From positions 3,894 through 67,893 of the forward strand of contig JAJZUD010000001.1 of assembly GCA_021848625.1 (NCBI GenBank): a stretch of 64,000 nt of DNA, in the 5' to 3' direction. The notes below the pieces were generated by a model. The model did not search any database and was not told the origin of the DNA. It saw only the letters and a list, made by a program, of their open reading frames with translations. The position numbers and the translations under genes were made by a program. The DNA comes from Pseudomonadota bacterium (lineage in GTDB: Bacteria > Pseudomonadota > Gammaproteobacteria > Francisellales > CACEW01). Of this stretch, positions 2,306 to 32,260 are shown in pieces. Positions within the stretch are counted from its first letter, which is position 1, and every line of letters starts with the position of its first letter.

Positions 2306-4951
2306 GTGTTAATGCTGAATAAGCAAGGTGATCAGGTTTTTTTAATTGATTCATTAACGGGCCAGGAATATTCTTATGAGGAATTTTATAATGAAGCCAT
2401 CAGTTTGGCCCATTGGCTTGTAAAGCAAGGGTTGAAGGCAGGTAATCGCCTTGCGATTACACTGGATAATTCCGTTTTTTTTGCGAAACTATACTTCGGT
2501 TGCTTATATGCGGGTGTGACAGTAGTGCCCGTAAACCCACAATGGTCAGAGTCTCATACACAATTTGTTTTGACGCATTCAAAAGCTTCTGCTTGGTTGA
2601 TGGACCAAGTACATGCCAAAGCTTATCACTCTTTAGAGCATGCGGTGAAACGTTTGGTTGTTACTTCAGATGTAATTGAAAAAGTAAAAGGGACTGTGCT
2701 TGACTCACCCAGTTTGGAAAATTTAGCGATCATTGTTTATACTTCTGGAACCACGGCAGATCCTAAAGGTGTAATGCATACAGTTGGGAGTTTAGTGAAT
2801 AATGCGCAACTCTTTATTAAAACATTGGGGATTGAAAAGGGACGGCGTTTCCTTAATTATTTACCTATGACTTATTTAGGGGGATACTACAATCTGTTGT
2901 TAATCCCTTATTTAGCAGAGGGCAGCGTGGTGATTGCGCCTGCATTCAATGCGCGTTCAATTCTACAGTTTTGGAAGCCCATTATTCAATATCAGGTTAA
3001 TGTCATTTGGTTTATTCCAACGATTATTTCCATGCTGATGAAATTGGATAAAAATTCAGAGGGTCTTGAATATTGCCATCAAACCAAAATTTTAGGATTG
3101 GTTGGAACGGCGCCACTTAGACCAGAATTAAAGACACAATTTCAGCAACATTATGGCATTGCATTATATGAAAATTATGGCTTGTCAGAGACTTTATTTT
3201 TAACTACTGAATCACCTCTGATTCCAGTTTCCCGCACGAGTGCTGGCTCTATTTTGCCGGGGATAGAATTAAAATTGATGGAACAAGGTGAGATAGGAGT
3301 GAAAACTCCTTACCTCATGCAGGGATATGTTGGCCTCAATGTAGAAGATTTTCTGCAGGGTCAATATTTCATGACGGGGGATGTCGGTGTGCTGACGGAC
3401 GCTGGAGAATTGCGGATTCAAGATCGTAAAAAAGATATGATTATTAAAGGGGGCGTCAATATTAGCCCTGCCAGTATTGAAGCTATAATTTCACAGGTTG
3501 AAGGGGTGGAGTTATGCGCGGTAGTGGGCGTTCAACACGATATTGCTGGTGAGGAAATTATTGGGGTGATTAAGCCACTTTTGGGTTTTGACTTTTCGGT
3601 GTTGAAGAGCAAAATTATCCAATATTGCAGAGAAAAACTAGATACAACGCAACAATTAGATTATTTGTTTGAATTAGAGAACTTTCCTTTTACGGCATCT
3701 GGGAAAATTCAAAAAAATAAAATTAGAGCTTGGGCAGTTGAGAAGCGTAATACAGCTAAGTCAAGTAAGGTCCACCCCTCCATCAAGCCCAATCATTTCT
3801 TTAAAGCCTCGCAAGTTGTTGCGAATATCGATCAGGCAATGTCTATCAAATACAATACCATGGTGTATGAGCGTCAGCAGCGCGGAGAAGAAACCATCGT
3901 CCTCTCGCTTGGCGAAGCTTTTTTTGATATCCCCCTTTTTGACTTTAATGCTTTGCCTATGCCCAAGCTTTACCACTATTGCCATTCTATGGGTATTCCA
4001 GAGTTGCGGCAATGTTTGGCAGATTATTTTCTTTCTGAGTATGATGTCAAGTTTAATCCTGAAACTGAAATTCTGGTAACAGCAGGTTCAAAAATTGCAA
4101 TTTATATGGCAATGCTCGCTATTCTGAATCCGGGCGATGAGGTCTTAATTTATGAGCCAGCCTGGGTAAGTTACACTGAGCAGGTGAAATTATGTTATGG
4201 GGTGCCGGTCGGGGTACCTTATCATGAAAGTGTTTATGATTTTGAGCGGTATATTACCAATCGTACTCGTTTGATTATTATTAACAATCCTAATAATCCC
4301 CGTGGTAGCGTGATGACTTTGGAGGAGCTGTCACATCTCTATCATTTGGCTGAAAAATATAATCTCTTCATTTTGTCTGATGAGGCATATAGTGATTTTG
4401 TACGGGATAAAAGTGAGTTTATTTCACTTGGTAATTTAGATCGGGAGAAAAAACATTCCATTATTGTGAATTCTATTTCCAAAAATTTTGGAATTTCAGG
4501 ATGGCGCATTGGTTACTTGATTGCTAATCCTGCACTGATTCAACAAATTTTAAAGCTGAATCAGCATATGATTACCTGCGCACCTACAGTCTTGTCACTT
4601 TATGTTGCGAAATACTTTTCAGAAATCCTTACGGTTACCAAGCCCCAAATGAAAGAGGTTGTGGAGCGACGTGAACGCTTGCGGCAATATATGGACAAAA
4701 TCGGTTTAAGCTATTTGCCTGGGACTGCGACGTTTTATTTCTTTGTTTCCTTGGGCGATTCGGAATTGGATTCTCAAAAATTTTGCGATCGGCTTCTCAA
4801 AGAAGAGGGTGTTTGTGTAGTACCTGGCGTAGGCTATGGGAAAAGCTGTGACCGTTTTGTAAGGGTTTCTATGTTTGCCGAGGCAGAGCAGCAAGTACAA
4901 AAGGGGCTCGATAAGTTAAAAAAATTAATTAATAAAACGAAGAGGGCTTAA
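2306..4951 (+). CDS. Fusion protein: adenylate-forming acyl/amino-acid ligase (N-terminal, about aa 1-475) plus class-I PLP aminotransferase (C-terminal, about aa 500-881)
   Basis: Ligase motifs: YTSGTTADPKGV, YENYGLSET, FMTGDVG, IQDRKKDMIIKGGVNISPASIE, ASGKIQK. Aminotransferase motifs: NNPNNPRG and SISKNFGISGWRIGY (PLP Lys about K726, codon 4481..4483). One uninterrupted 881-codon frame. GTG at 2306 or ATG at 2312. Confidence 0.75.
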   Translation: MLMLNKQGDQVFLIDSLTGQEYSYEEFYNEAISLAHWLVKQGLKAGNRLAITLDNSVFFAKLYFGCLYAGVTVVPVNPQWSESHTQFVLTHSKASAWLMDQVHAKAYHSLEHAVKRLVVTSDVIEKVKGTVLDSPSLENLAIIVYTSGTTADPKGVMHTVGSLVNNAQLFIKTLGIEKGRRFLNYLPMTYLGGYYNLLLIPYLAEGSVVIAPAFNARSILQFWKPIIQYQVNVIWFIPTIISMLMKLDKNSEGLEYCHQTKILGLVGTAPLRPELKTQFQQHYGIALYENYGLSETLFLTTESPLIPVSRTSAGSILPGIELKLMEQGEIGVKTPYLMQGYVGLNVEDFLQGQYFMTGDVGVLTDAGELRIQDRKKDMIIKGGVNISPASIEAIISQVEGVELCAVVGVQHDIAGEEIIGVIKPLLGFDFSVLKSKIIQYCREKLDTTQQLDYLFELENFPFTASGKIQKNKIRAWAVEKRNTAKSSKVHPSIKPNHFFKASQVVANIDQAMSIKYNTMVYERQQRGEETIVLSLGEAFFDIPLFDFNALPMPKLYHYCHSMGIPELRQCLADYFLSEYDVKFNPETEILVTAGSKIAIYMAMLAILNPGDEVLIYEPAWVSYTEQVKLCYGVPVGVPYHESVYDFERYITNRTRLIIINNPNNPRGSVMTLEELSHLYHLAEKYNLFILSDEAYSDFVRDKSEFISLGNLDREKKHSIIVNSISKNFGISGWRIGYLIANPALIQQILKLNQHMITCAPTVLSLYVAKYFSEILTVTKPQMKEVVERRERLRQYMDKIGLSYLPGTATFYFFVSLGDSELDSQKFCDRLLKEEGVCVVPGVGYGKSCDRFVRVSMFAEAEQQVQKGLDKLKKLINKTKRA

Positions 4952-5935
4952 ATGTTTAATCCGCAGGATGTAGATTTATATCGTAAAGGTGCAGAGACCT
5001 TAGTATTAAATTGTGCGAATTTACAAGCAGGTGAACAGGCTATTTTAATTGCTGATCCAGATACTGCGGCTGCAGGAGCGTTTATCTGTGAGTATGCGGC
5101 ATCAAAGGGTTTGGTGATCGAACAGGTCAATGTGCCTTCTGTAGGGATGCATGGCATGGAACCTCCTGCCGAGGTAGCAGAGAAAATGTGCAAAGCAGAG
5201 GTGATTTTTGGTCTGAGGAAAATGTCGATGGCTCATACCAAAGCTCGGCTCGCCGCTAGTGAAAGGGGGGCGCGTTATTTAAGTTTGCCGGATTATTCTT
5301 TTGCAGTGCTGGCTAGTCCGGCTTTGTATGTGGATTTTAGAGCTTTATCGAAACAGGCTAATCATCTAGCGAATATTTTAACAGCTGGTAAAAAGGCGCA
5401 TTTGACCACGCAGGCAGGAACAGACTTACATCTAGTGCTGGAGGGTCGAGTTGCAAATTCCGCACCAGGTTGGTGTTATGAGAAAGGAATTTTAGCCTCT
5501 CCTCCAGATGCAGAAGTCAATATTCCGCCGGTTGAGCACTTGACAGAAGGAGTGATCGTGGTGGATGGGAGTATTCCTTGCCGTGAATTAGGGCTGCTCT
5601 TGTCACCCTTAAAATTATTTGTGGAGAAAGGTCGCGTCGTCAAAATTGAAGGTGAGAAAGCAGATATTTTGAATCAAATATTTGATCGCTTGAATAATCC
5701 AGCGACTCGTGTGATTGCTGAGTTTGGCATTGGTTTGAATCCTAAAGCAGCCTTAAGTGGAAATATGTTGGAAGATGAGGGTTGCCTCGGGACAGCCCAT
5801 TTAGGGATTGGTTCCAATAAAACCATTGGTGGGCAGAATGATGTCCCTTTTCATCTTGATCATATTGTAAGGCACACTTCGATTAAGATAGACAATCATT
5901 TGTTGATGAAAGATGGGGTTTTACAAGTTGGATGA
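4952..5935 (+). CDS. M29 (aminopeptidase T/PepS)-like protein
   Basis: 327 aa. The C-terminal pattern AEFGIGLNPKAALSGNMLEDEGCLGTAHLGIGSN resembles the M29 signature (..G.N....DEK..GtvH.AlG). Its ATG immediately follows the stop of the fusion gene. Confidence 0.45.
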   Translation: MFNPQDVDLYRKGAETLVLNCANLQAGEQAILIADPDTAAAGAFICEYAASKGLVIEQVNVPSVGMHGMEPPAEVAEKMCKAEVIFGLRKMSMAHTKARLAASERGARYLSLPDYSFAVLASPALYVDFRALSKQANHLANILTAGKKAHLTTQAGTDLHLVLEGRVANSAPGWCYEKGILASPPDAEVNIPPVEHLTEGVIVVDGSIPCRELGLLLSPLKLFVEKGRVVKIEGEKADILNQIFDRLNNPATRVIAEFGIGLNPKAALSGNMLEDEGCLGTAHLGIGSNKTIGGQNDVPFHLDHIVRHTSIKIDNHLLMKDGVLQVG

Positions 5936-6170
5936 TTTATTGGATATATTTAAAGTTTACGCAGTAATTGATGGAATATCTCAGGAATGCCTGTTGGATA
6001 TAGATTATTTGGATGCGAATTTAATGAGCTCAATTGCTTTCGTTTCTTTTGTTGCAGAACTTGAAGAGCGTTGCGGGCTCAATTTAGAGAGTGATATATT
6101 ACAAGATCTGAGATTCCGGAGCCTACGGGGTATTCAATCAATTATGCAAGAACAGGGCTTGGGTAAATGA
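5913..6170 (+). CDS. Acyl/peptidyl carrier protein-like
   Basis: 85 aa. MSSIAFVSFVAELEERCG aligns position-for-position with the ACP core DSLxxVELVxxLEEEFG, placing Ser40 (tca 6030..6032) at the phosphopantetheine site. Confidence 0.5.
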   Translation: MGFYKLDDLLDIFKVYAVIDGISQECLLDIDYLDANLMSSIAFVSFVAELEERCGLNLESDILQDLRFRSLRGIQSIMQEQGLGK

Positions 6171-7411
6171 GAGTTGCCTTAATTAACAATATGAATAACA
6201 ATTTTTTTTCCTTGGCGCGTTATTTACGCGACCGTGGAATCGATGCACACGTGTTTCAATTTGATAGCATTTATAATGGATTTTTGCCTGAAGCAGATAC
6301 CTTCGAAGATGTACAAGAAATTGACTATATCCATTTGATCTCTCAAATTACTTTTCGAGATTTTTTTAATCCCTTTTCTCGAAAAGTAAAGCGAGCGATA
6401 AAAAAATTAAAACAAGAATTAGTGGGTTTTGATGTCGTGATAGGATGTGGTGTCTTAGCTTTTTTTGAAAGGGCAGGCATGCAGCCGCTGGATGTGCTGA
6501 TTCCATACGGTGGGGATGTGTATCAATTAACTGATTTATTTAACTATTCAAGGAAGAAATACTTCCCTTATTCAATGTTAATGCGTTATATCATGAAGTA
6601 TCAGCGTGCTGCCATTCAAAAGGTGCGCTGCACAGTGTCATTCGCTAGCAACGATTTGCATATTGCAGATGCTCTAGCTAATATGGGGAAGCCTTGGATT
6701 GATTGGAATATTCCAATGATTTATCCCATTGCGTGTCCTTCTACTGAAACGCGTTGGGATTTTTTGAAAAATCACGATTTTGTATTATTTAGCCAGATTA
6801 GGCAAACTTGGAAAACAGGCACTGATTATAATGGGAACGACCGCGCCATCGAAGGGTATGCAAAATTTATTAAAGAGCATAATCGTTTCAAAAATCCAGT
6901 ATTTGTGCTATTTGAATATGGGTGTGATGTCAGTGCCTCTAAAGAATTAATTGCAACGCTGGGGATTGAATCTTACATCAAATGGGTGCCGAGTATGAAT
7001 CGTAAATATATTTACTCGGGATTAGATCACGCTGATCTTGTAACTGGTATTTTTAACCCTGAAGTCATTTCTTGTGGGGGAGTGACCTATGAGGCTTTTT
7101 CGCGTTCTGTTCCAGTCATTGGATGCGCAAAGATAGAACGCGGTGGTCGCCATGATCTTCCCCTGCTTCATGCGATGGAACCAGAGGAAATTTGTGCGAT
7201 TCTGACAGATTTTCAAGAGAATCCACTCAAGTATCAGAAGATTGGAAAAAAATCCAAAGCTTGGTTTGATAAAGAAGTGGGGGAGGGTTTAATTGATCGG
7301 TATGTTAAGTTGTTCAGAATATTGAGCGAGGATAAAATGGTAACATTGGATGATCCAAATGGCCCTCTTGCACATCTGAGCTATCAGAATTATGTTAAAA
7401 AACATCTTTAA
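6167..7411 (+). CDS. GT-B fold glycosyltransferase-like protein (putative)
   Basis: 414 aa soluble protein. The N-terminus MRVALINNMNNNFF and the C-terminal GGVTYEAFSRSVPVIG resemble the two Rossmann halves of GT1/GT4 enzymes. Weak assignment. Confidence 0.35.
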   Translation: MRVALINNMNNNFFSLARYLRDRGIDAHVFQFDSIYNGFLPEADTFEDVQEIDYIHLISQITFRDFFNPFSRKVKRAIKKLKQELVGFDVVIGCGVLAFFERAGMQPLDVLIPYGGDVYQLTDLFNYSRKKYFPYSMLMRYIMKYQRAAIQKVRCTVSFASNDLHIADALANMGKPWIDWNIPMIYPIACPSTETRWDFLKNHDFVLFSQIRQTWKTGTDYNGNDRAIEGYAKFIKEHNRFKNPVFVLFEYGCDVSASKELIATLGIESYIKWVPSMNRKYIYSGLDHADLVTGIFNPEVISCGGVTYEAFSRSVPVIGCAKIERGGRHDLPLLHAMEPEEICAILTDFQENPLKYQKIGKKSKAWFDKEVGEGLIDRYVKLFRILSEDKMVTLDDPNGPLAHLSYQNYVKKHL

Positions 7412-9638
7412 GGATAGCGCGATCTATGGTATTGGAACTTTTATTACGAGTTTCATTAATCTCTTGTTTTTGCCGCTTTTGACCCGTCTTCTTACTGTGA
7501 ATGAGTTTGGGGTGATTTCACTCGTTGCATCTTTGACAAGTATTGTTAATTACCTTGTAACGCTCAATATTACTCAATCAACATCACGCTTTGTTGTAAG
7601 AGCAGAAACGATAGAAGAAAAAAGGCTGTATGCCTCAAGTGGTTTTTGGTTTATTTGTCTAGCGTATCTTTTATGTCTTTTAATATTAAGTGGGGGTTTT
7701 CGATTTCTGAGTATTCCATTGGTCGGGGTAGATGATTTTATTTTGTACTTGACAGCGTTATTGTGTATTATTTTTTCTGGAATTTTTACTTATATGAATA
7801 GTCAGTTGCGTTGGCTTTTAAAGCCACATGCTTTTGTGAAGGCTTCAATTTTGATGGTCGTAAGCTCTGTCGTTTTTACTTATGTAAGTATTCGATTTTT
7901 ACAAATGGGTGCAATGGGGTATTTTTTAGGGCTGTGCTTGGGCTATGCTTTGGGAGGGCTATATGCCTATACGCATGTTTACACGCTTTTTTCTTTCCAA
8001 TTTTCGAGAGAGAAACTGAAGCAAATGTTAGTTTTTTCAACGCCTTTGGCTTTGTCGAGTGTCATGAGTTATTTCTATCTGGCGATTGATAAGTGGGCAA
8101 TTCGGATTTTGCTGAATTTTCATGATCTGGGAATTTATGGTGTGGCATCCCGTTTAGCGAGTATTGGTCCTGCTGCGATTGGGGTCTTGTCTTTGGGTTT
8201 GTTGCCGTATATTTATTCTTCTTATCAAAAGCCCGAATTTCCCAAAACTATTTCCTTTTTATTTAGATTAACTTTGTGGGCAGCATTCTCTGGAGCTCTG
8301 TTTTTTTTAGTATTTCAGCACGGCTTAATGTCACTGATTGCTGGAAAAAATTTCTTAGAGGCGGGGGCCTACGTCCCTTTATTATTTATGGGGGTGGTCT
8401 TGACCTCCTTTTATGATTTTACCCCCGGCGCTTGGATTTATGGCAAGACTATTCGCATTGCAGTTGTGAATGTGGTCACTGGGGTTGTGAATACGGCCTT
8501 AAATTTCTTATTGATTCCCCACTTTGGTTTGTGGGGGTCCGTGATCGCAATGCTGATTTCGGGGGGGATTGTTTTTGGTGGTAATGTGTTGATGAGTCAG
8601 TCTTTGTATAAAGTGCCGTATTCTTGGATACGTGTTTTTTTTGCCAGCTTGGTTTTTTGTGGATGCTATACCGTTCTCAATCAGGTAAAATTATCTTGTT
8701 TATCAAAGCTTTTCATTTCACTTTGTGCCATTGGGTTCATGGGAATGATTTTGTTGTTTTCAAAGGATCTATTAATGCGTTTATTAGAATATGCAAAGCG
8801 CACGGAGCAGCGCAAAGTGGCAAAAGAATCGTTAGGCTGGCTGCAAAAGGGAGCGGTTTTGGGCTTGCGCCTGGCTCGTAGCGTTGCCCACCCATTTAAG
8901 ATGAGGGCCCCTTTTCATCAAGTGGCAGCCTATTATTTATGCGAAAGTCTTGTCGTTAAACTGAATCCTTGTGCGAGTGACCATGCGCTGCCCTTACCTG
9001 ATGATTTGATAATCGCCCCAGGGTATTATGTCTATGAAGGCGCAACCTATGACATAAGGTGGTCTGGCGTTTACCGTTTTATGCAGTATGACCAAAAAAA
9101 TGAGCAAAGGGTAGTATATCAACTTGAAGCAGATATCTTGACTTTATTGGCCTCTTTGGCAGCACTGCATAATCATGGAAATGAAGATGATGGAAAAACC
9201 AATTTAAGATGTTATGAGTTGGCGAAGTCCAGAAAGCTTAATTTAAGCTGCCAGGATATGGCCGTTTTTAGCCATTTTATCTTGCAAAAATTAAAATTGG
9301 AATCGCGTGTTGTGGCGACAATGACCCTAGAAGAATTGAATGGCGATGATGGGCATTACATGATTGAAGTCTATTGCCCTATCAGAAAAAAATGGCTTTT
9401 GTGTGACCTTGATTTAGGGTTTTGTTTTAAAAAGCAGGATGAGTTTTTATCTTTGGATGAATTTCTACAGCATGTGTCTGCAGGGAACTATGATTTTTAT
9501 CCTTTGACCCAATACCCTGCTGTGGACATGGGAGGGTTCAGGGCGAAAAATGGCTATCGCTATGATTTTTTGGTGGAAGCCATGTTCGGAGATCTGAAAA
9601 CTTGGTATAAACGTGTGGCAGGTAAACGGCAAGTCTAG
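7392..9638 (+). CDS. Wzx-like MOP-family polysaccharide flippase with an extra C-terminal soluble domain of about 280 aa (transglutaminase-like Cys-His-Asp pattern)
   Basis: The first ~470 aa are consecutive hydrophobic helices typical of polysaccharide biosynthesis/flippase proteins (SAIYGIGTFITSFINLLFLPLLTRLL..). The tail contains LSCQDMAVFSHFIL..(x)..GHYMIEVYCPIRKKWLLCDLD. Confidence 0.65.
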   Translation: MLKNIFKDSAIYGIGTFITSFINLLFLPLLTRLLTVNEFGVISLVASLTSIVNYLVTLNITQSTSRFVVRAETIEEKRLYASSGFWFICLAYLLCLLILSGGFRFLSIPLVGVDDFILYLTALLCIIFSGIFTYMNSQLRWLLKPHAFVKASILMVVSSVVFTYVSIRFLQMGAMGYFLGLCLGYALGGLYAYTHVYTLFSFQFSREKLKQMLVFSTPLALSSVMSYFYLAIDKWAIRILLNFHDLGIYGVASRLASIGPAAIGVLSLGLLPYIYSSYQKPEFPKTISFLFRLTLWAAFSGALFFLVFQHGLMSLIAGKNFLEAGAYVPLLFMGVVLTSFYDFTPGAWIYGKTIRIAVVNVVTGVVNTALNFLLIPHFGLWGSVIAMLISGGIVFGGNVLMSQSLYKVPYSWIRVFFASLVFCGCYTVLNQVKLSCLSKLFISLCAIGFMGMILLFSKDLLMRLLEYAKRTEQRKVAKESLGWLQKGAVLGLRLARSVAHPFKMRAPFHQVAAYYLCESLVVKLNPCASDHALPLPDDLIIAPGYYVYEGATYDIRWSGVYRFMQYDQKNEQRVVYQLEADILTLLASLAALHNHGNEDDGKTNLRCYELAKSRKLNLSCQDMAVFSHFILQKLKLESRVVATMTLEELNGDDGHYMIEVYCPIRKKWLLCDLDLGFCFKKQDEFLSLDEFLQHVSAGNYDFYPLTQYPAVDMGGFRAKNGYRYDFLVEAMFGDLKTWYKRVAGKRQV

Positions 9639-11464
9639 GAGAAATGACGTTCATGCCACATTTGAAACATGAGCAAAACCCAAATATCTTGGTGGTCTGT
9701 AAGTTTGCCAGAAAAAAGATTATGCTTAAGTTGGTTAACATACTGTGAATTTAAAATTCCGCTTTTTTTGAGCCTCACATCATCCAAATACTCATTGACT
9801 AACGGTTTTAGATCACTTTGGAGCCATTGATTAAGGGGGAGGCCAAAGCCTTGTTTTTTGCGTTCAAAAAAAGCGGGTGGAAGGTAGCCTGCAAGAATTT
9901 TTTTGAGAATCTTTTTCTGCTGTTTATAAACCAGAGGCAGGGTTGCAGCATATTCAATGATTTTATGGTCTAGTAATGGCTCACGGCCTTCTAGGCCAAT
10001 AAACAGAGTAGCGCGATCCACCTTGTGAAGAATATCTTCGGGAAGATAAGTTTCAAAGTCAGCAAGCATCATGGTTTCTGCCATGCTTGAGCCCTGTGGC
10101 ACAGCATCACAAAAAATATGCTGCCCAATCAGTTTCTTGACCTCTGTGGGAGTCAGAACAGATGAAGCTGTACGGTAAAGTAAGCTGTCGTCCATCAGTG
10201 GCAGAAGTGCTTGGAGCCGAAGAGATTTTTTGCTGAGCATTGTATTTGGAATAAGTTGAGACAGCCATAACATTGCATGCCGCGCAGGCAATTTTTTTAG
10301 CTTTTGAAATAGGGAGGGGAAACGTGCATAAACTGAATAACCACCAAAAAGCTCATCCCCACCATCCCCAGATAGGGCTACTTTAACAGTTTGTTTTGCA
10401 AGTTTTGCGACAAGGTGTGTGGGGATGGCAGAGGAATCACCAAAGGGCTCATCATACATTTCCGGTAATTGAGGAATAATATCCAGTGCATCTTGTTTGC
10501 TGCAGTAATGTTCCGTATGCACGGTTCCTAAATAGTGTGCTATTTTCTTTGCATGCTCAGCTTCATTGTATTGTTGCTCTTCAAAGCCAATGGTGAAGGT
10601 ATGCAAAGGCGTGGAAGAGTGTTTTTGCAAAATAGCTGTGACGAGGCTGCTATCAATGCCGCCACTCAAAAAGCAGCCGACGGGAACATCTGCAACCATG
10701 CGGAGTTGAAAAGATTCTTGCAGAATGGTTTCGAGTTGTGCAGTTGCTTCTTCCTCGGAGAGATTGGCAGCAGCTTGCACTGTACGGACTGACCAGTATT
10801 GTTTTTCAGTAAAGCTTTGGTCCTTGAGATCTAAGATAACAAAGTGCCCAGGCTTTAGCTTAAAGGTATTTTCAAAAATAGAATGTGGAGCAGAAATATA
10901 ACCCCATTGCATGTAATGTGAGAGGCCTGTTTGGTTGAGGCGCTTTTGAAAACAAGGATGCTGCATCAAAGGGCTCAGTGTACTACCAAAAATAAGGAGG
11001 TCATGTTGGTGGTAATAATAAAGGGGTTTTACGCCTGCGCGATCTCGAAAGAGGTAAATTTTCTGGGCATTACTGTCGTAGAGGCAAAAAGCAAACATGC
11101 CGCGAAATTGTTGCACGGCATCCACTCCCCAGCAATGAAATGCTTTAATGATCACTTCGGTGTCAGAATGAGATTGAAAAGTATAACCTTTTTGCGTAAG
11201 TTGTTTTTGAATTTCCTCAAAATTATAGACTTCTCCATTATAGGTGAGAGATAAGCCTTCAAAATGGTAGGGTTGGTGCCCTGCTTCGGATAAATCAAGA
11301 ATGGAGAGCCGGCTATGACCCAAGCCAATTTGAGCGAAATGGGTGTCCAATAAAGCGTAGCCTTGGTCATCTGGCCCACGACGCTGTATCGTTTGAACCA
11401 TTTTATTAAGCATCTCTGGTGTGCTCTTTTTTTTAAAATCAATAAAACCCGTTATTCCGCACAT
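9635..11464 (-). CDS. asnB: Asparagine synthase (glutamine-hydrolysing) family amidotransferase
   Basis: N-terminal nucleophile MCGITGF, then SGGIDSS PP-loop motif; 609 aa. Stop overlaps the flippase stop region (convergent). Confidence 0.85.
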   Translation of the reverse strand: MCGITGFIDFKKKSTPEMLNKMVQTIQRRGPDDQGYALLDTHFAQIGLGHSRLSILDLSEAGHQPYHFEGLSLTYNGEVYNFEEIQKQLTQKGYTFQSHSDTEVIIKAFHCWGVDAVQQFRGMFAFCLYDSNAQKIYLFRDRAGVKPLYYYHQHDLLIFGSTLSPLMQHPCFQKRLNQTGLSHYMQWGYISAPHSIFENTFKLKPGHFVILDLKDQSFTEKQYWSVRTVQAAANLSEEEATAQLETILQESFQLRMVADVPVGCFLSGGIDSSLVTAILQKHSSTPLHTFTIGFEEQQYNEAEHAKKIAHYLGTVHTEHYCSKQDALDIIPQLPEMYDEPFGDSSAIPTHLVAKLAKQTVKVALSGDGGDELFGGYSVYARFPSLFQKLKKLPARHAMLWLSQLIPNTMLSKKSLRLQALLPLMDDSLLYRTASSVLTPTEVKKLIGQHIFCDAVPQGSSMAETMMLADFETYLPEDILHKVDRATLFIGLEGREPLLDHKIIEYAATLPLVYKQQKKILKKILAGYLPPAFFERKKQGFGLPLNQWLQSDLKPLVNEYLDDVRLKKSGILNSQYVNQLKHNLFSGKLTDHQDIWVLLMFQMWHERHFS

Positions 11465-11476
11465 TGTTGCCTTCCC

Positions 11477-13297
11477 CTAATTATGTTGCAGCCAAATTTC
11501 AGTCGCGAGAAGAGACCAAAGCATCTTAGCGCGTTTCTCATCAGAGATAGGGACTTTTCTTTGGAGCAGGTTTTGGATAAAGGAAGGAGCAACATAGTCA
11601 CTGACCTTGGGCGTGCCTTCTAAATAAGCATGCATTTTCGTTTTGAGCTCGTGATTGAGCCAGGATTTAAGGGGGATTTCAAATCCCCGCTTGGGTTGAT
11701 TGATCAATTCAAGAGGGAGGTATTGTTTAGCCAGTTGGCGCAGAATAAATTTGGTCGCCGTGCCCTTTATTTTATAGTGATCTGGAAGTTGGGCTGAGAG
11801 CCTTAGCATATCTCGGGAGAGAAAAGGGCTGCGAGCTTCCAATGCATGAGCCATGGTTGCAATATCCATTTTAACAAGTAAGTCGCCAAAAAGCAGAAGA
11901 TTAAAGTCAAGGTAGAGCATTTTATCCAAGGCCGACAAATGGGGATCCCCTTGGACTTGATGGATAAAACCATCCAACTGATCATCAATAGCATTGAGCG
12001 GGAAAGTGTAGCTATCGTTAAAAGCATCCACCGTAGCTGAAGTGTAAAAATCTAAGCCTTGCTTACTGGACATAGCGAGCAGGCGATAAAAATAATTGTA
12101 TTTGCTCTTTTTATGGTGAGGTTTAGGCAAAATAGCGGTGAGGAAGGCGAAGGTTCGTGCCCACTCTATCCATCTTTTGGTCAAGGGCACATAACGTCGA
12201 TAGCCTGCAAAAAGCTCATCAGCGCCATCGCCATTTAAGACCACAGTGACGTGTTTTTTAGCTTCTTTCGCAACATAATAGCTTGGGATAGCGCTAGAGT
12301 CTAAAAAAGGTTCGCCATAGTTGAGTAAGATTTTTTCTAAGTCTTGCTCCACATCCATGGCAATTTCTATTTCAGTATGTTCTGTTCTATAGCGTGCAGC
12401 AGTAAGCTTGGCAAGGGAAGTTTCATCATATTCACCTGGAAATTTGACTGTAAATGTTTTTAATCGAGATTGCTCCTGAGCGGCAAGTGCCACAATCAGG
12501 TTGCTATCAATCCCACCTGATAAAAATGCACCGACTTCTAACTCACTGCTCATGAGTCTATTCTTTACGGCAGTTTGAAGAGTCTGATCTGTCAAGGCCA
12601 TGGCATCGGGAAGAGACAGCTCAAGTTTGGGCTGATGATAAACCTCCAAAAGATCAAAATAGGACTTTTTTTGAAGGGCAAGACTTGTTAGATCAAGGCT
12701 GAGATAATGGCCCGCATTCAGTTCATAGACTTCATGATAGGGGGTGTGTTCTTTAAAGAAAAAGCCACAGCGGAGGAGACTCTTGATCGCTTCGTGATGG
12801 AGGGTCAAGGGGAGAATCGCTTTTAAGGCATTGAGCTCACTTGCAAAGGCAAAGCGGTCATTTTTTTTATAATAGTAAAGAGGTTTTTTACCAGCTCGGT
12901 CGCGAGCTAAAAATAGGGAGTTTTTGTTTCTATCCAAAATGGCGAAAGCAAACATCCCATCTAGGTATTGAAAGAGGTCTTTGTCAAATTGAATGTACAT
13001 CGCTAACAGGGTTTCAGTATCGCTTGAGGTTTGAAAAGGAAAATCACGCAAATACTCCTTCCGCAAGGCGAGGTGATTGTAGATTTGTCCGTTTAAGATA
13101 ATAGTGTAATGTTGGTAATGCAGGGGTTGATGGCCATGCTGAATGTCTTGAATGGCTAGGCGAGTATGAACTAAGCTCAGTGCGTCATGACTATAATGGC
13201 TTTGTTTGTCTGGGCCGCGATGATGTAAGGCTTGTAGCAGTTTTTCAATGGCTAAGTTTCGATCTTGTAAATTAATAAATCCTGCAATGCCACACAT
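11477..13297 (-). CDS. asnB: Asparagine synthase (glutamine-hydrolysing) family amidotransferase, second copy
   Basis: MCGIAGF nucleophile, SGGIDSN PP-loop; 606 aa. Lies 12 nt upstream of the first copy on the same strand. Confidence 0.85.
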   Translation of the reverse strand: MCGIAGFINLQDRNLAIEKLLQALHHRGPDKQSHYSHDALSLVHTRLAIQDIQHGHQPLHYQHYTIILNGQIYNHLALRKEYLRDFPFQTSSDTETLLAMYIQFDKDLFQYLDGMFAFAILDRNKNSLFLARDRAGKKPLYYYKKNDRFAFASELNALKAILPLTLHHEAIKSLLRCGFFFKEHTPYHEVYELNAGHYLSLDLTSLALQKKSYFDLLEVYHQPKLELSLPDAMALTDQTLQTAVKNRLMSSELEVGAFLSGGIDSNLIVALAAQEQSRLKTFTVKFPGEYDETSLAKLTAARYRTEHTEIEIAMDVEQDLEKILLNYGEPFLDSSAIPSYYVAKEAKKHVTVVLNGDGADELFAGYRRYVPLTKRWIEWARTFAFLTAILPKPHHKKSKYNYFYRLLAMSSKQGLDFYTSATVDAFNDSYTFPLNAIDDQLDGFIHQVQGDPHLSALDKMLYLDFNLLLFGDLLVKMDIATMAHALEARSPFLSRDMLRLSAQLPDHYKIKGTATKFILRQLAKQYLPLELINQPKRGFEIPLKSWLNHELKTKMHAYLEGTPKVSDYVAPSFIQNLLQRKVPISDEKRAKMLWSLLATEIWLQHN

Positions 13298-13440: not shown

Positions 13441-14679
13441 ATGTTAATGATCTGCATATTAAGTTTGGCGGCGCTCTGTTTGGGGTTAGCAATCTTACGG
13501 GGATTTACGCCTTTTTATAAAAGAATTTTTCCTGCTGTGATCGTTTGTTGGTTAGGCCATATTTTGGGAACTTTTGCCTATAGTTTGGTCGGTTCAGATT
13601 CGCATTCCTATTATTTTCCATTGGCCACGCCTGGAATCAATCAAACGTTTAAGTCTCCTTTTGGCAGCGGATTTATTTTGAATGTGGTCTGGTATGTGCG
13701 CTTATTTTTAACGGGAGATTCTTTTTTAGCGACTTTGTTCTTTTTCGGCATGTTAGGGTTTTTGGGCAGCATTTTATGGTATTGCCTGTACCTTAAAATA
13801 GCAGATGAGTTAAATATGACTCGGGCTCGCATTTTGGCTGTGCCGGCTTGGGTGATATTGTGTTGGCCTTCCATTTTGTTTTTTACAGCTGGCATGAAGG
13901 ATGCTTGGCCTTTTTTATTTTTGCCTTTATTTTTTATTTGTTTATTTTCGCTAAAGACTTCCACATCTAAGCTATTTTCCTTAGGTTTATTGGTGCTTGT
14001 CGGCTTGATGATATTAATGCCTCGGCCCTACTTGATTTTGATCATTGTGTTTGCATGGTATTTGACTTTTTTAGCGCAAGGAAAAAATCCCCGCACTTAT
14101 TGGGTGAAAATTGGGTTGTCCTTCTTATTTGTATTTATTTTTATTAGCCTGGCACAACACATTGTGAGTATTACAGTAGGAGGAAATATTGATAGGCGTT
14201 TGGGGCATGCTTCCAACTTTGGACAGGTTGCTTCTCAGGCTGTGTTACAGCAGCAGTATTTAAGTGTCGGAACTTCTTTCCCGATGTCCACTAACCCAGC
14301 GTTATTACCTTTGCTATTGCCCTATAGCTTTTTAATGAATTTATGCTTTCCCTTATTTATTTTTTCTAACAATTTACAAAGTGTCTTGCAATCATTTGAA
14401 AATCTTTTCCTCATTTATTTACTTTTCTTTTCATGGAAAAAAAGAAAGATATTTGCAGCGCGTGCAAAGAACAACAGTGCGGTGCGGTTAATGTTTTTTT
14501 ATTTTGTGGTGGGGATGAGCTTTCTCGCATTGATTAACACAAACTTGGGATTATCAACTCGTGAAAAAGCCATGTATTTGCCGGCATTTTTGATTGTTTT
14601 TAGCCTGGCGTATGGATTATATTGCCAGGAAAAGATAGAATATTTACGAAAAAAAGAGGGAAAACGATGCGTAAAATAG
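13441..14679 (+). CDS. Polytopic membrane protein, candidate O-antigen polymerase (Wzy-like)
   Basis: 412 aa, about 10 or more hydrophobic segments, no recognisable catalytic motif. The call rests on position in the glycan locus and the lack of any other polymerase candidate. Confidence 0.3.
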   Translation: MLMICILSLAALCLGLAILRGFTPFYKRIFPAVIVCWLGHILGTFAYSLVGSDSHSYYFPLATPGINQTFKSPFGSGFILNVVWYVRLFLTGDSFLATLFFFGMLGFLGSILWYCLYLKIADELNMTRARILAVPAWVILCWPSILFFTAGMKDAWPFLFLPLFFICLFSLKTSTSKLFSLGLLVLVGLMILMPRPYLILIIVFAWYLTFLAQGKNPRTYWVKIGLSFLFVFIFISLAQHIVSITVGGNIDRRLGHASNFGQVASQAVLQQQYLSVGTSFPMSTNPALLPLLLPYSFLMNLCFPLFIFSNNLQSVLQSFENLFLIYLLFFSWKKRKIFAARAKNNSAVRLMFFYFVVGMSFLALINTNLGLSTREKAMYLPAFLIVFSLAYGLYCQEKIEYLRKKEGKRCVK

Positions 14680-22718: not shown

Positions 22719-23321
22719 ATGGGCAAGCGAGCAGTTGATTTTACTCTAGCGTTAATCGCGCTCATCTTCCTGTCTCCTGTTTTTTTAGTTTTAGCTTTAT
22801 TGATAAAATTAGAGACAGGTGGGAGTGTTTTTTTCTTACAAAAAAGAGTAGGTAAAAACGAAAAGCCCTTTACTATTTTTAAATTCCGTAGCATGTATGA
22901 AAAGCATGGTCTAACCCCAGAAGAACTAGGCCCGGTCAAGCATAATCATGCAGTGGTCACAAAATTAGGCCATTTTATGCGGCGCACTAAGTTAGATGAA
23001 ATCCCGCAGTTTGTAAATGTATTGATGGGGACAATGAGCATAGTCGGTCCGCGGCCTTGTTTGTACTCTAGTCTTGAAGAGATGAGTGAGGACGAGCGAA
23101 GACGGTTTAGTGTGTCCCCTGGGGTGAGTGGCTGGGCCGAGGTCAATGGGAATGTAGAATTAACTTGGCACGAACAGTTGGCATTAGACTTATGGTATAT
23201 TGATCACCAAAGTTTTTGGTTGGATTGGCTGATTATCGGCAAAACTCTCAAAACTATTTTTTGGGGTTCCATTCGCAATGAAAAAGCCTTACTGCAAGCC
23301 CATAAACATGAAAATGACTGA
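22719..23321 (+). CDS. Small monotopic phosphoglycosyl transferase (PglC/WbaP-C-terminal type), copy 1
   Basis: N-terminal re-entrant helix, FKFRSM, LDEIPQFVNVLMGTMSIVGPRP. Confidence 0.85.
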   Translation: MGKRAVDFTLALIALIFLSPVFLVLALLIKLETGGSVFFLQKRVGKNEKPFTIFKFRSMYEKHGLTPEELGPVKHNHAVVTKLGHFMRRTKLDEIPQFVNVLMGTMSIVGPRPCLYSSLEEMSEDERRRFSVSPGVSGWAEVNGNVELTWHEQLALDLWYIDHQSFWLDWLIIGKTLKTIFWGSIRNEKALLQAHKHEND

Positions 23322-23995: not shown

Positions 23996-24991
23996 ATGTC
24001 CCATTTTGAAGTAATCAAAAAAGAGCTGACGAAAACCTCTTATACTTGGCTTGTGACGGGAGTTGCAGGGTTTATTGGCAGTCATTTACTGGAGTTCTTG
24101 CTGGCGCACAATCAGAAGGTCATTGGGATAGATAATTTTGCTACGGGTAATCAGGCAAATATTCAGCCTTTTTTGGGTTCTCCATTATTTAAGTTTTATG
24201 AAAGTGATATTCGAGATGCGCATGCTTGTGCAGAAGTAATGCCAGGGGTGGATTTTGTCTTGCATCAGGCTGCATTAGGCAGTGTGCCGCGTTCGATCAA
24301 GGACCCCATGGCCACGCACGATGTGAATGTCACTGGCTTTCTGAATATGCTGATTGCTGCAAAAGATGCGGGAGTCAAGCGATTTGTCTATGCTTCCTCA
24401 AGTTCAGTATACGGAGACTCCCCTATTTTGCCCAAAGTGGAAATACATCAAGGCAATCCGCTTTCTCCCTATGCAGTGAGCAAAATGACCAATGAGCTTT
24501 ACGCAAAAGCCTTTAGCAATTGTTATGATATCGAAACAATTGGCTTGCGTTATTTTAATGTCTTTGGTGCAAGACAAGACCCTAACGGCCAGTATGCAGC
24601 GGTGATTCCATTGTGGGTGAAGGCGTTATTGCAAAAAGAACCTGTTTATATTAACGGCGATGGTGAGACCTCACGTGATTTTTGCTATGTCAAGAATGTG
24701 GTTCAAGCGAATATTTTAGCGGCGACGACTCAAAATAAGGAAGCGGTGAACACAGCATATAACGTTGCGGTAGGAGATCAAACCAGTCTGAATCAGCTGT
24801 ATCTAGCCCTGACAGAACGTCTCAAGATCAAAGGGGCAGGCCCAATCTATCGGGATTTTCGTGCTGGGGATGTGAGACATTCTCTTGCCAGTATTGAAAA
24901 AGCCCAAAATCTTTTAGGGTACAAGCCGACGCATAAAATTGATGCGGGCTTGGACGAAGCAATTAAGTGGTACCAGAATCATGTGGTCTAA
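23996..24991 (+). CDS. UDP-HexNAc(A) 4-epimerase (WbpP/TviC-like SDR)
   Basis: [23 protein letters not shown] (YxxxK); 331 aa. Natural partner of the TviB-like dehydrogenase. Confidence 0.8.
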
Positions 24992-25586
24992 ATTTTTTAA
25001 GAGAATTTTTGACTTTTGCTTTGCTCTGTTATTGTGTATTTTGTTGTGTTGGCTATTTGTTATTTTACTTATTTTAGTGAGGATTGTTTTAGGTTCTCCA
25101 GTGATTTTCAAGCAGGAACGTGTGGGTCGTTCTGAGCGAATATTCAAAGTTTATAAATTTCGTTCTATGACTGATCGACGTGATCAAAAAGGGATGTTAT
25201 TGCCGGATGAAATCCGCCTAACGTGTTTCGGACGGTTTTTGCGTCATTCTAGTTTAGATGAGCTACCCCAATTGTGGAATATCCTAAAAGGGGATATGAG
25301 CGTTGTGGGCCCCCGCCCCCTGTTAGTTGAATATTTGCCATTGTATGATGATGAGCAGAGAAGGCGGCATTTTGTCAGGCCAGGCCTGACGGGTTGGGCG
25401 CAGGTGAATGGTCGAAATACAATTTCCTGGCAAGAAAAATTTAAATTAGATGTTTGGTATGTTGATCATCAAGATTTTTTTCTAGATCTAAAAATTTTGC
25501 TATTGACGATTAAAAGAGTGCTTGGATCGCAAGGGATCCAACAAGCCGGCCAAGCTACAGTTGAAAAATTTAACGGAGCCAACTGA
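24981..25586 (+). CDS. Small monotopic phosphoglycosyl transferase, copy 2 (PglC-like)
   Basis: [12 protein letters not shown] start at ATG 24981 (the track ORF start 24939 lies inside the previous gene); [28 protein letters not shown]. Confidence 0.85.
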
Positions 25587-26254: not shown

Positions 26255-27421
26255 ATGTTCGGGAAAAAATGGCCTATTTATCCTCAAGATGAAATTAATG
26301 CGGTTGTTAAAGTTCTGGAATCAGGAAAGGTCAACTACTGGACGGGCGATGAAGGCAAATTATTTGAAAAGGAGTATGCTGAATACTTAGGGATTAAGTA
26401 TGCCATTGCCGTTGCGAATGGAACCAATGCCCTTGAGCTTTGTCTCCATGCTTTGGGGGTTGGGCCGGGGGACGAGGTGATTATTCCCTGTCGTACCTTT
26501 TTAGCCACGGCAAGTTGTGTTGTCGAAGTGGGGGCAAAACCCGTGGTCTGTGATATTGATTTGATTTCACAAAATATCACTGTCGAGACGATCAAGCCCC
26601 ATGTCAACGCTAAAACCAAAGCAGTCATTGCGATGCATAATGGGGGTTGGCCTTGCGACATGGAATCCATTATGACATTTGCAAAACAACACAATTTATA
26701 TGTGATTGAAGACTGTGCTCAGGCGCATGGAGCAAAAATAAACGGACAGCCCGTTGGAAGCTTTGGTCACATGTCTGCATTTTCTTTTTGTCAGGATAAA
26801 ATTATCACAACGATGGGTGAGGGGGGGCTCGTTGCAACCAATGACCGCGCTTTGTGGAAAAAGGCATGGGCCTACAAAGATCATGGCAAAGATTATGACA
26901 CGGTCCACCATAAGGAGCACGCGCCTGGGTTTCGTTGGCTGCATGAGTCCTTTGGAAGTAATTATCGCATGACCGAGGCACAGGCTGCCGTGGGGCGAAT
27001 TCAACTCAAAAAATTGCCTGAATGGCAGAAAGTTCGCCAGCGAAATGCACTGATTCTGAAGGAGATATTGAAAGATTTAGGCCTCTTTGAGTTCTCTGCG
27101 CCTGAGTCAGGATACCTCCACGCCTACTATCGCTGTTATGTTTCGGTTAAGTTAGAGGCATTAAAACTGGGTTGGGATCGAGATCGTCTGATGGCCGCGA
27201 TTAATGCGGCAGGAGTGAAATGTTTGGTGGGGAATTGTCCTGAAATTTATCGTGAGGTGGTATTTGTAAAAGCGGGCCTTGCGCCAAAAGACCGGTTCTG
27301 TAATGCCAAAATTTGGGCTGATCGCAGCCTCTGTTTCCTAGTTGATCCTGTTTATGATGAACAAGATATGGCAAACATGGGGGCTCTAGTGAAACAAACC
27401 ACTCTCGAAGCAATATCATGA
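26255..27421 (+). CDS. DegT/DnrJ/EryC1-type sugar aminotransferase (PglE-like)
   Basis: GTNALELCL, SFCQDKIITTMGEGG (PLP Lys); 388 aa. Confidence 0.85.
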   Translation: MFGKKWPIYPQDEINAVVKVLESGKVNYWTGDEGKLFEKEYAEYLGIKYAIAVANGTNALELCLHALGVGPGDEVIIPCRTFLATASCVVEVGAKPVVCDIDLISQNITVETIKPHVNAKTKAVIAMHNGGWPCDMESIMTFAKQHNLYVIEDCAQAHGAKINGQPVGSFGHMSAFSFCQDKIITTMGEGGLVATNDRALWKKAWAYKDHGKDYDTVHHKEHAPGFRWLHESFGSNYRMTEAQAAVGRIQLKKLPEWQKVRQRNALILKEILKDLGLFEFSAPESGYLHAYYRCYVSVKLEALKLGWDRDRLMAAINAAGVKCLVGNCPEIYREVVFVKAGLAPKDRFCNAKIWADRSLCFLVDPVYDEQDMANMGALVKQTTLEAIS

Positions 27422-29262
27422 GAAAAAAAATAGATCACTTTTGGATAATCTATCGTAATCGAGGTATTGCGGTTATCGCAGATCTCGTTTCGATTACGCT
27501 GGCCTTCTTTTTTGCATACTGTTTTCGTTTTAGTTTTGAGTCCAGTCCTCAGTTTTCCCTGGCTGTGCTGATGCATTTTTTCGTAGTTGTGTTGCCTGTG
27601 CAGTTTTTTTTCTTTGTACTATTTGGGTTGTATCGGGGGGTTTGGCGATTTGCTTCAATTCCAGACTTAATCCGTATTGTGAAGGCAGCTGCTGTTGGAG
27701 CTCTTTTCCTGGTTGCCGTTTGGTTCTTCACCGCTGAGCATCATGTTTACATTTTGCCGCGTTCAGTGCCGCTTTTGTACTTTATTTTTCTGGTTTTGAT
27801 GCTGGGGGCAAGTCGAACTGCTTATCGCTTTTGTAAAAGTTATCATGGAATGGGCGGGGCGAGCCGGGTTTTAATCATTGGAGCAGGGGATGCGGGTGAA
27901 GGATTGATTAGAGATTTATTTCGTCATGCATCCCAAAAGTACAGGCCGATTGCAATTTTGGATGATCATCCTGTTAAATATGGGCGGGATCTCCATGGAG
28001 TGCGTGTTGTCGGTAAAATTTCAGATATGGGGTCTGTGGCTGAAAAATATAAGATCGAACACGTTTTCATTGCAATTCCTTCCATGTCGGCAAAAGCGAT
28101 GCGGAGTATTGTAGATTTATGTGAACGCTTTGATTTGCCTTATTCTACCTTGCCTAGTTTGCAGGAGCTCAGTTCATCACAAGTGAACTTGGGATTGCTC
28201 CGTCAGGTCTCCGTAGAAGATTTAATTGGGCGAGAAGAGGTGCATGTTGATCCATCTGAAATTACTGAGTTGTTAACTGGGGAAGTGGTTTTAGTGACTG
28301 GGGGAGGGGGTTCTATTGGAAGTGAGCTTTGTCGCCAAATTGCTCATTTTGCACCTAAAAAATTGATTGTTTTAGATCATTCCGAGTTTAATTTGTATCA
28401 AATTGATCAGGAATTACATGCAATGGCCAATCAAGTGCAATATGAGATCTGCCTCGGTTCGGTTGCGGACTTTACATGGATGGAGTCTGTTTTTGCACAG
28501 CATCAGCCCAAAGTGATTTTTCATGCGGCGGCTTATAAGCATGTTCCGATGTTGGAAAGTCAGTATAAAGTGGCGATTAAAAATAACGTAATGGGAACAA
28601 AAATCACTGCGGAGCTTGCGGTGCAATATCAAGTGGAAAAATTTATTTTTATTTCAACAGATAAAGCCGTCAACCCAACGAATATCATGGGAGCAACTAA
28701 AAGAATGGGCGAAGCTTATTGCCAAGCGCTCAACCAGCATGCGGGTACGCAGTTTATGGTGGTGCGTTTTGGTAATGTAATTAATTCTGCTGGAAGTGTC
28801 ATCCCCCTGTTTCGCAAGCAAATTGAAAATGGGGGGCCGGTTACGGTGACTCATCCTGAAATTACGCGTTATTTTATGACCATTCCAGAAGCATGTCGAC
28901 TCATTTTGCAAGCGGGAAGTCTGGGTCAAGGTGGAGAAATTTTCGTTTTAGACATGGGAGAGCCCATTAAAATTCAATATCTGGCTGAGCGTCTTATTCA
29001 GTTTTCTGGGAAAGAAATTGGCCGGGATATTGAGATTGTCCACACAGGATTGAGGCCTGGGGAAAAATTGTTTGAAGAGCTATTTTATGGGCATGAAAAT
29101 TTAAACGCGACGGCTCATCAAAAGATTATGCAATCTTGTTATCATTCTGAAAATCAATCCATTAAGGAATGCATTGACCAGTTGGTTGAGAGTTTTCAGG
29201 GCGATTCTCTGGTCGAGCTCATGCAAAAATTAAAACTTATTGTGCCAGAGTATCAAGGTTGA
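27418..29262 (+). CDS. Membrane-anchored UDP-HexNAc 4,6-dehydratase (CapD/WbpM/PglF family)
   Basis: Four N-terminal TM helices, VLIIGAGDAGE, VTGGGGSIGSEL, YKHVPM. ATGA overlap at 27418. Confidence 0.85.
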   Translation: MRKKIDHFWIIYRNRGIAVIADLVSITLAFFFAYCFRFSFESSPQFSLAVLMHFFVVVLPVQFFFFVLFGLYRGVWRFASIPDLIRIVKAAAVGALFLVAVWFFTAEHHVYILPRSVPLLYFIFLVLMLGASRTAYRFCKSYHGMGGASRVLIIGAGDAGEGLIRDLFRHASQKYRPIAILDDHPVKYGRDLHGVRVVGKISDMGSVAEKYKIEHVFIAIPSMSAKAMRSIVDLCERFDLPYSTLPSLQELSSSQVNLGLLRQVSVEDLIGREEVHVDPSEITELLTGEVVLVTGGGGSIGSELCRQIAHFAPKKLIVLDHSEFNLYQIDQELHAMANQVQYEICLGSVADFTWMESVFAQHQPKVIFHAAAYKHVPMLESQYKVAIKNNVMGTKITAELAVQYQVEKFIFISTDKAVNPTNIMGATKRMGEAYCQALNQHAGTQFMVVRFGNVINSAGSVIPLFRKQIENGGPVTVTHPEITRYFMTIPEACRLILQAGSLGQGGEIFVLDMGEPIKIQYLAERLIQFSGKEIGRDIEIVHTGLRPGEKLFEELFYGHENLNATAHQKIMQSCYHSENQSIKECIDQLVESFQGDSLVELMQKLKLIVPEYQG

Positions 29263-30460: not shown

Positions 30461-30507
30461 TTGAGGTATAATGGAAGATCATAGCGCATTCTAGCATTTA
30501 AAGAGAG

Positions 30508-32258: not shown

Positions 32259-32260
32259 AA

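Follow-up and report, generated by a model that had tools for sequence, protein, structure and literature searches.

Why would a membrane flippase for polysaccharide repeat units carry an enzyme-like domain in the same polypeptide? The question is raised by an open reading frame (ORF) for 748 amino acids in a 64,000-nucleotide stretch of DNA, here called the window, from a gammaproteobacterium of the order Francisellales (lineage CACEW01; assembly GCA_021848625.1, contig JAJZUD010000001.1, positions 3,894 to 67,893 of the forward strand). The ORF encodes a Wzx-type flippase followed by a C-terminal transglutaminase-like (TGL) domain with a Cys-His-Asp triad; a preliminary description based on the letters of the window had proposed this architecture, and Pfam matches, AlphaFold2 (AF2) models, Foldseek comparisons and an invariant triad now agree on it. 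The flippase-TGL fusion gene is genuine, and its reading as flippase plus transglutaminase-like domain is supported for both halves; each module comes from a known superfamily, their combination is new, and a search of the literature brought up no Wzx-transglutaminase fusion. With a probability of roughly 55%, two neighbouring genes of a polysaccharide cluster have been fused here into a protein whose cytoplasmic thiol enzyme acts on the sugar unit before it is flipped. The fusion ORF has the following parts:

7392..9638, plus strand: whole fusion ORF (Wzx-type flippase and transglutaminase-like domain), 748 aa; ATG start, stop TAG at 9636..9638
7392..8756, plus strand: flippase module of the multidrug/oligosaccharidyl-lipid/polysaccharide (MOP)/Wzx type, residues 1-455, with 14 predicted transmembrane (TM) helices, N-terminus and C-terminus inside (Pfam, AF2, Foldseek, bias of lysine plus arginine)
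8757..8921, plus strand: fusion joint, a basic polar helix (about residues 456-499) and a short low-confidence linker (500-510) (AF2, alignments)
8922..9635, plus strand: TGL domain, residues ~511-748, corresponding to positions 30-294 of 338 in the family hidden Markov model (HMM)
9249..9251, plus strand: codon of Cys620, predicted nucleophile and first residue of helix 620-633; invariant in 81 sequences (alignment, AF2)
9354..9356, plus strand: codon of His655, in a beta strand; invariant (alignment, AF2)
9405..9407, plus strand: codon of Asp672, at the end of the next beta strand; invariant (alignment, AF2)

Integrity of the Fusion Reading Frame

The ORF listing of the window gives 7392..9638 as one continuous frame. 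Around the junction (8700..9060) both remaining plus-strand frames are closed by many stops and no homopolymer run was found; the GC content is unbroken across the joint. A contig in ENA that was assembled separately with MEGAHIT (k141_207209, 67,955 bp) matches the window in 8247 of 8247 compared nt, and the exact 748-aa protein is recorded on four contigs (NCBI, ENA, Logan). On account of the identical independent assembly, the four contigs, the closed alternative frames and the missing homopolymer, an assembly or sequencing error that joined two ORFs, an explanation already raised in the preliminary description, is very unlikely, and we give it hardly any weight; the sole points in its favor are that the fusion is unique and that the sequence is metagenome-derived.

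The protein is longer than an ordinary flippase, as had been noticed: about 290 residues follow the last TM helix, whereas the 29 other flippase relatives that were found all measure 437-502 aa, which makes the fusion a singleton. The motif positions given earlier stand in part. GHYMIEVY begins at residue 654 and places His655 at 9354..9356, and LLCDLD begins at residue 669 and supplies the conserved Asp with the first D of its DLD (D672); the Cys codon is to be read at 9249..9251, not 9247..9249, within an LSCQD motif that starts at residue 618.

The Flippase Module and the Side of the Membrane

Two Pfam families, which together span residues 7-321, match the N-terminal half well above their cut-offs: Polysacc_synt (PF01943; 68.3 bits vs. 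28.2) and Polysacc_synt_3 (43.7 vs. 23). The flippase was modeled with AF2 from an alignment of 27 flippase homologues only, and the TGL domain was modeled separately; the flippase model contains 14 TM helices, the last of which ends at residue 455, with a predicted local distance difference test score (pLDDT) mostly above 90. In a Foldseek search with this model, WzxE ranked first (E = 2e-9, TM-score 0.83 on the target), followed by the 14-helix MurJ (0.75). The likeness to these Wzx/MOP flippases comprises the Pfam match, a superposable 14-helix fold and the polysaccharide cluster context; the window protein differs from them by its ~290 extra, predicted cytoplasmic residues with an enzyme fold. 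The module is predicted to translocate a lipid-linked oligosaccharide. Its closest relatives, for example in Methylomarinum vadi, are about 30% identical at best, and the 27 aligned homologues end at window residue ~480-487. Among well-known MOP flippases, a large C-terminal extension is known only from the mycobacterial MviN/MurJ, whose pseudokinase domain is unrelated to TGL.

The side of the membrane on which the extra domain lies had been named earlier as a matter for topology prediction, and the prediction favors the cytoplasm. Lysine and arginine residues number 21 in the predicted cytoplasmic segments vs. 4 in the periplasmic loops, and 10 of these 21 fall within the 45 residues after TM14. 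Since the helix number is even and the N-terminus is inside, everything after residue 455 would be cytoplasmic; helix count and charge bias in this way place the fused TGL domain, as a prediction, at the cytoplasmic face.

The Transglutaminase-Like Domain

Alignments of 61 and 81 family members, about 33% identical to the window domain, contain 7-12 invariant columns; the 12 invariant columns of the 81-sequence alignment include C620, H655 and D672 together with R562, R639, K615 and E659. Since Cys, His and Asp account for three of 12 invariant columns across 81 sequences, the triad is not a chance pattern, and the triad of a papain-like transglutaminase core, first recognized in the single sequence of the window, is invariant in both alignments. 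The window domain matches the Pfam family Transglut_core (PF01841) with 14.7-16.7 bits, under the gathering score of 23; two of its relatives exceed that score (P0003 with 25.3 bits, P0010 with 30.6), and 59 of the 81 family members match at E ≤ 0.01, while other families do not recur. Neither an NCBIfam model nor a sequence relative in PDB was found for the TGL domain family.

The AF2 model of the domain, built on the 81-sequence alignment, has a pLDDT of 87 and a predicted template modeling score (pTM) of 0.83. In model numbering, helix 151-164 begins at the Cys, the His lies in strand 185-193 and the Asp ends strand 198-203; the model thereby reproduces the canonical layout of the papain/transglutaminase core, in which a helix starts with the Cys and neighboring strands carry the His and the Asp. 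Judged only from this placement in the secondary structure, Cys620, His655 and Asp672 would lie close together in an active site. Foldseek comparison of the model with PDB returned E-values of 2.6e-3 to 0.1 and probabilities of up to 1.0 for a core of ~100 residues; the matches comprise transglutaminase 2 (TG2), factor XIII (FXIII), arylamine N-acetyltransferases, Rad4/XPC, vasohibins, PeiP/PeiW, LapG, TglA and papain-like USP deubiquitinases. The fold check suggested in the preliminary description thus came out as papain/transglutaminase-like, with weak PDB matches; for the N-terminal, beta-rich part of the domain, no PDB fold match was found at E ≤ 0.001.

A word-indexed search with residues 470-748 as query found one relative, P0001, a standalone protein of 343 aa with one N-terminal hydrophobic segment and 44% identity across residues 535-743. 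When 1.84 billion representatives were searched exhaustively with a profile, 787 clusters came out at E ≤ 1e-3, 203 of them at E ≤ 1e-30; the members are nearly all 290-350 aa long and mostly standalone. This family of ~790 clusters is uncharacterized and uncurated. A scan of representative genomes, with search patterns that do not match the window’s own sequence, produced 40 loci with family members from Nitrosopumilales, Planctomycetota, the Candidate Phyla Radiation (CPR), Omnitrophota, several proteobacterial classes, Firmicutes and others; methanotrophs are among the hosts, as is Methylomicrobium sp. wino1 (CP024202, listed as a complete genome), whose standalone homologue lies at about 837.1-838.0 kb. 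The N-terminal hydrophobic segment is absent in 51 of 195 members.

Several members depart from the standalone form. Tandem duplications occur in P0115 (663 aa) and P0090 (586 aa), with the catalytic Cys lost in the second copy; P0140 (542 aa) fuses a ThuA-like to a TGL domain; P0146 (731 aa) is a lipoprotein that combines a Listeria-Bacteroides repeat with TGL; and in P0147 (440 aa) a signal-less N-terminal extension of ~190 aa, lacking a Pfam match, precedes the domain. Many thaumarchaeal members have a basic amphipathic N-terminus (MNNKKFGLGVKKLAVKALG...) in place of a TM helix. In ammonia-oxidizing archaea, standalone members (L005/L009 of the Nitrosopumilaceae metagenome-assembled genome (MAG) JBBDOC010000013, L008, L015) are found by UDP-sugar dehydrogenase, DegT, FemAB-like and AsnB-like genes. 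A uniform cytoplasmic location of the family was considered and rejected; many anchored members are predicted to have the N-terminus inside, one is a lipoprotein, one is prepilin-like, and a Planctomycetota neighbor carries a twin-arginine (Tat)-type signal.

The Joint and Its Split Counterparts

The two halves of the fusion occur as separate, adjoining genes in an alphaproteobacterial MAG (locus L030), where the standalone homologue next to wzx that had been proposed as a search target was found. There, the TAA of a 495-aa Wzx-type flippase gene overlaps the ATG of a gene for a 297-aa TGL family member by 1 nt (TAATG). The flippase aligns to window residues 2-414 and the TGL protein to residues 501-742 (29% identity, E = 7e-25); the N-terminus of the latter lacks a hydrophobic segment, as in a signal-less, soluble protein. 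These alignments show the window protein as the equivalent of an L030-like gene pair set head to tail without extra linker.

The joint can also be compared with anchored relatives. When P0001 is aligned with the window protein, its standalone anchor helix falls in a gap, and its lysine-rich segment behind the anchor matches the basic stretch after TM14. In the closest standalone relatives (P0001, P0003-5), the anchor is preceded by 3 residues and followed by a lysine-rich flank; these flank charges point to the same domain-inside orientation as in the fusion. The locus with the most similar gene content, L012 of a deltaproteobacterial MAG, keeps the genes separate, in the order homologue of the window gene at 6167..7411, TGL, methyltransferase, deacetylase, DegT, AsnB, Wzx; the homologue of 6167..7411, which in the window precedes the fusion, is directly upstream of the standalone TGL gene.

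Genomic Neighborhoods and the Probable Substrate

Four neighborhoods were annotated with Pfam, those of the window, of Methylomicrobium sp. wino1, of a Roizmanbacteria MAG and of a Nitrosopumilaceae MAG, and all four are polysaccharide clusters. When ORFs within 7 kb of TGL genes were clustered over 38 non-redundant loci, these neighbors were counted:

AsnB-like amidotransferases: 17 of 38 loci
DegT aminotransferases: 15 of 38 loci, adjacent or within ~70 nt in 6
Epimerases/dehydratases of the short-chain dehydrogenase/reductase (SDR) type: 14 of 38 loci
GFO-type oxidoreductases, in two clusters: 8 and 6 of 38 loci
Hexapeptide acyltransferases: 10 of 38 loci
A ~575-aa protein: 9 of 38 loci, abutting or overlapping the TGL gene in 7

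The frequent neighbors are enzymes of amino- and uronic-sugar modification, and no universal partner was found among the 38 loci. Because of this spectrum of neighbors, a sugar substrate is favored over a protein substrate. An action of TGL on uronamides made by the AsnB-like amidotransferases was considered as well and is weakened, as two of the three closest TGL-free flippase clusters also hold AsnB-like genes.

The sugar substrate has to be weighed against a regulatory function, in which the TGL domain would be a protein-directed cysteine protease or transglutaminase that cleaves or cross-links an assembly partner (a glycosyltransferase, the polymerase, a co-polymerase or the flippase itself) and not the sugar. 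Most characterized transglutaminase-fold enzymes act on proteins or peptides, and several of these (TG2, FXIII, LapG, PeiW/PeiP, vasohibin) appear in the fold comparison. A precedent is HvyA of Caulobacter crescentus, a transglutaminase-like protease of the BTLCP family encoded in a capsule export locus, which blocks capsulation and needs its catalytic Cys, His and Asp residues (PMC4241560). HvyA and the window domain have in common that a transglutaminase-like Cys-His-Asp protein is encoded inside a capsule or polysaccharide locus; yet HvyA carries a Sec signal, is soluble in the periplasm and is not fused to a transporter, whereas the TGL domain is predicted to be cytoplasmic. Among the 81 family members no BTLCP match (HvyA/LapG type) recurred, LapG appeared only as a weak fold match, and no member matches a protease family other than Transglut_core. 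The conserved neighbors are sugar-modifying (DegT, GFO oxidoreductases, SDR, AsnB-like), and no protein partner recurs. In balance, a regulatory, protein-directed role appears rather unlikely.

The ~575-aa protein belongs to a recurrent triplet, in which a protein with a weak, under-threshold GH42M-like match, TGL and a GFO/GH109-like oxidoreductase occur together (L031 at 8167..11974, L034, L036, L037, L040, L007, L016, L017 and L019). In L031, L034, L036 and L037 (MAGs of Omnitrophota and 'uncultured bacterium') all three proteins are signal-less; in the Planctomycetota loci L017 and L019 the oxidoreductase has a Tat-type signal and TGL an anchor, and in L019 the ~575-aa protein has a signal peptide, too. 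The triplet seems to change compartment as a unit. Identity of the ~575-aa protein with the ThuA-like N-terminus of P0140 was considered and rejected (pairwise E = 2.2, both Pfam matches under threshold).

Comparison With Known Enzyme Systems

The TGL domain resembles the Transglut_core superfamily (PF01841) in the order and spacing of Cys, His and Asp, in the helix and strand layout, in the Pfam matches of most members and in its fold matches; it differs in that the window domain itself stays under the Pfam threshold, that ~100 core residues superpose (TM-score <0.3), and that its context is glycan synthesis. Within the wider fold, the arylamine N-acetyltransferases (NATs) would, by analogy, be the nearest mechanistic precedent: they share the transglutaminase-related fold and the Cys-His-Asp triad, and they acylate an amine from a thioester donor by way of an acyl-Cys. 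Fold matches to these enzymes (1w4t with E = 9e-3, 2ija, 4bgf and 3lnb) reached an overall TM-score of ~0.26-0.31. NATs are soluble three-domain proteins, and TGL has no NAT sequence match; neither the window domain nor any of the 81 family members matched the NAT family in Pfam. RifF, an amide synthase, is related to the arylamine N-acetyltransferases.

The lasso-peptide B/C pair provides an analogy only. It, too, combines a transglutaminase-like Cys enzyme with an asparagine synthetase homologue, as do the 17 of 38 loci with AsnB-like genes; in contrast to lasso-peptide C, the AsnB-like neighbors here keep a full glutamine amidotransferase (GATase) domain with the N-terminal MCGI cysteine, and AsnB-like genes are equally common in related clusters without TGL. 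No lasso-B type model matched among the 81 family members.

The Gene Cluster of the Window

The fusion ORF belongs to a cluster of ~29 kb that also holds many glycosyltransferases. Its nearest neighbors are:

6167..7411, plus strand: GT-B-like glycosyltransferase, 414 aa, upstream of the fusion; its end overlaps the start of the fusion ORF by 20 nt
9635..13297, minus strand: two convergent AsnB-like glutamine amidotransferases, 609 and 606 aa, with N-terminal MCGI (ORFs, Pfam)
13441..14679, plus strand: candidate Wzy-type polymerase, 412 aa, with ~10 hydrophobic segments and no Pfam match; it would belong to a polymerase family outside Pfam

The stop of the fusion (TAG, 9636..9638) and that of the convergent AsnB-like gene (minus strand, 9635..9637) have the palindrome CTAG (9635..9638) in common. 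The AsnB-like pair are the sole minus-strand genes of the cluster, and they abut the end of the TGL domain, at which the tail of the family is missing. Upstream of the glycosyltransferase, an AMP-binding ligase and a class I/II aminotransferase-like domain are joined in one protein of 881 aa (2306..4951), followed by an M29/NicX-like protein (4952..5935) and by an 85-aa protein with a weak phosphopantetheine-binding match that resembles acyl carrier proteins (5913..6170); the genes of 2306..6170 look like a carrier-protein-based system for an unusual acyl or amino substituent of the polysaccharide. Two Bac_transf genes for initiating sugar-phosphate transferases (22719..23321 and 24939..25586) enclose a PIG-L deacetylase and an epimerase, and the cluster ends with a WbpM-like Polysacc_synt_2 gene (27418..29262). 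Beyond the cluster (29237..35969) follow a DAO oxidoreductase, an AAA/DUF4143 protein, RpoD with a Sigma70 non-essential region and adenylosuccinate lyase; the RpoD is of proteobacterial type and indicates a Gram-negative host, and the product of the flanking DAO gene is 40% identical to its counterpart in Methylomarinum.

A Proposed Thiol Enzyme at the Flippase Entrance

The anatomy, homology and fold class of the fusion, its invariant triad and its predicted cytoplasmic orientation have been described above; the chemistry, and its coupling to export, we infer as follows. A complete 14-helix Wzx/MOP flippase gene has been fused to a neighboring gene of the transglutaminase-fold Cys-His-Asp family; the last flippase helix replaces the N-terminal membrane anchor of the closest standalone relatives and is predicted to keep the TGL domain on the cytoplasmic side, next to the entrance of the flippase. 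There, a thioester on Cys620 (an acyl-Cys intermediate) could react with the sugar unit in an amide or acyl step; possible reactions are N-acyl transfer to an amino sugar, as in arylamine N-acetyltransferases, or amide transfer or hydrolysis. As its substrate, the enzyme would take the repeat unit on undecaprenyl diphosphate or the last precursor of that unit, and the finished unit would be handed to the flippase of the same polypeptide, which would couple modification to export. The suggestion in the preliminary description, that the domain may modify or proofread the lipid-linked repeat unit, is kept at this conditional level.

Several observations weigh against this interpretation. Every function proposed for TGL would have to be derived from a family without a characterized member, and the Foldseek E-values of the model are weak (2.6e-3 at best). 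Among the 144 anchored members, charge suggests that the domain is outside in 103 and inside in 24; P0146 is a lipoprotein, and P0036 has a prepilin-like leader. Given this mixed topology, action at the cytoplasmic face is not possible for every family member. The domain is absent from all 29 other flippase relatives, scans of JGI metagenome contigs found neither close relatives nor further fusions, and the clusters of the three closest flippases contain no TGL gene; since AsnB-like genes are present in two of these three TGL-free clusters, the association with AsnB is a trait of the cluster type and not specific to TGL. The conserved C-terminal tail of the family (HMM positions 295-338) is absent from the window domain, no remnant of it was found elsewhere in the window, and of 68 positions with a conservation of ≥85%, 22 are changed in the window domain, among them W591A, S587A and Y671C. 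On account of the missing tail and the deviant positions, a reduced or altered activity of the window domain is possible. Since the only inverted block of the cluster, the AsnB-like pair, abuts the tail-less end of the domain, an inversion or insertion may have clipped the tail.

The same observations could be taken to mean that the fusion is an accident, in which a stop was recently lost between overlapping wzx and tgl genes, no coupling arose, and the domain keeps its standalone job or decays. That the fusion is a singleton, that its domain is truncated and deviant, and that the inverted AsnB-like pair lies at the truncated end would all fit; the 1-nt overlap of L030 shows that one indel could easily fuse such genes. 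Yet all 12 invariant residues, the triad included, are kept, and the truncated domain is still modeled with confidence (pLDDT 87). Moreover, the ancestral TM anchor is cleanly gone, no extra linker was added, and the orientation is that of the closest standalone relatives; the clean removal of the anchor and the kept orientation suggest adaptation after the fusion. An accidental fusion is likewise regarded as rather unlikely, and the coupled cytoplasmic enzyme remains the favored reading.

Extended to the whole family, the proposal would be that its ~790 clusters are glycan-directed thiol acyl- or amidotransferases that act on amino and uronic sugars at either membrane face, in bacteria and archaea, and that the window protein is a 'modify-and-flip' machine, which physically ties the final reaction on the lipid-linked repeat unit to export; in this general form it is speculative and held with low confidence.

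Significance

The fusion bears on the question of how Wzx flippases recognize only completed repeat units. A natural fusion of a flippase with an enzyme is a Rosetta-stone hint that a late modification is coupled to flipping, and it names the partner. Apart from the fusion, a large, unannotated enzyme family has come into view that is embedded in surface-glycan clusters at the loci examined; at least one host, Methylomicrobium sp. wino1 (CP024202), is listed with a complete genome and may permit gene knock-out and glycan analysis.

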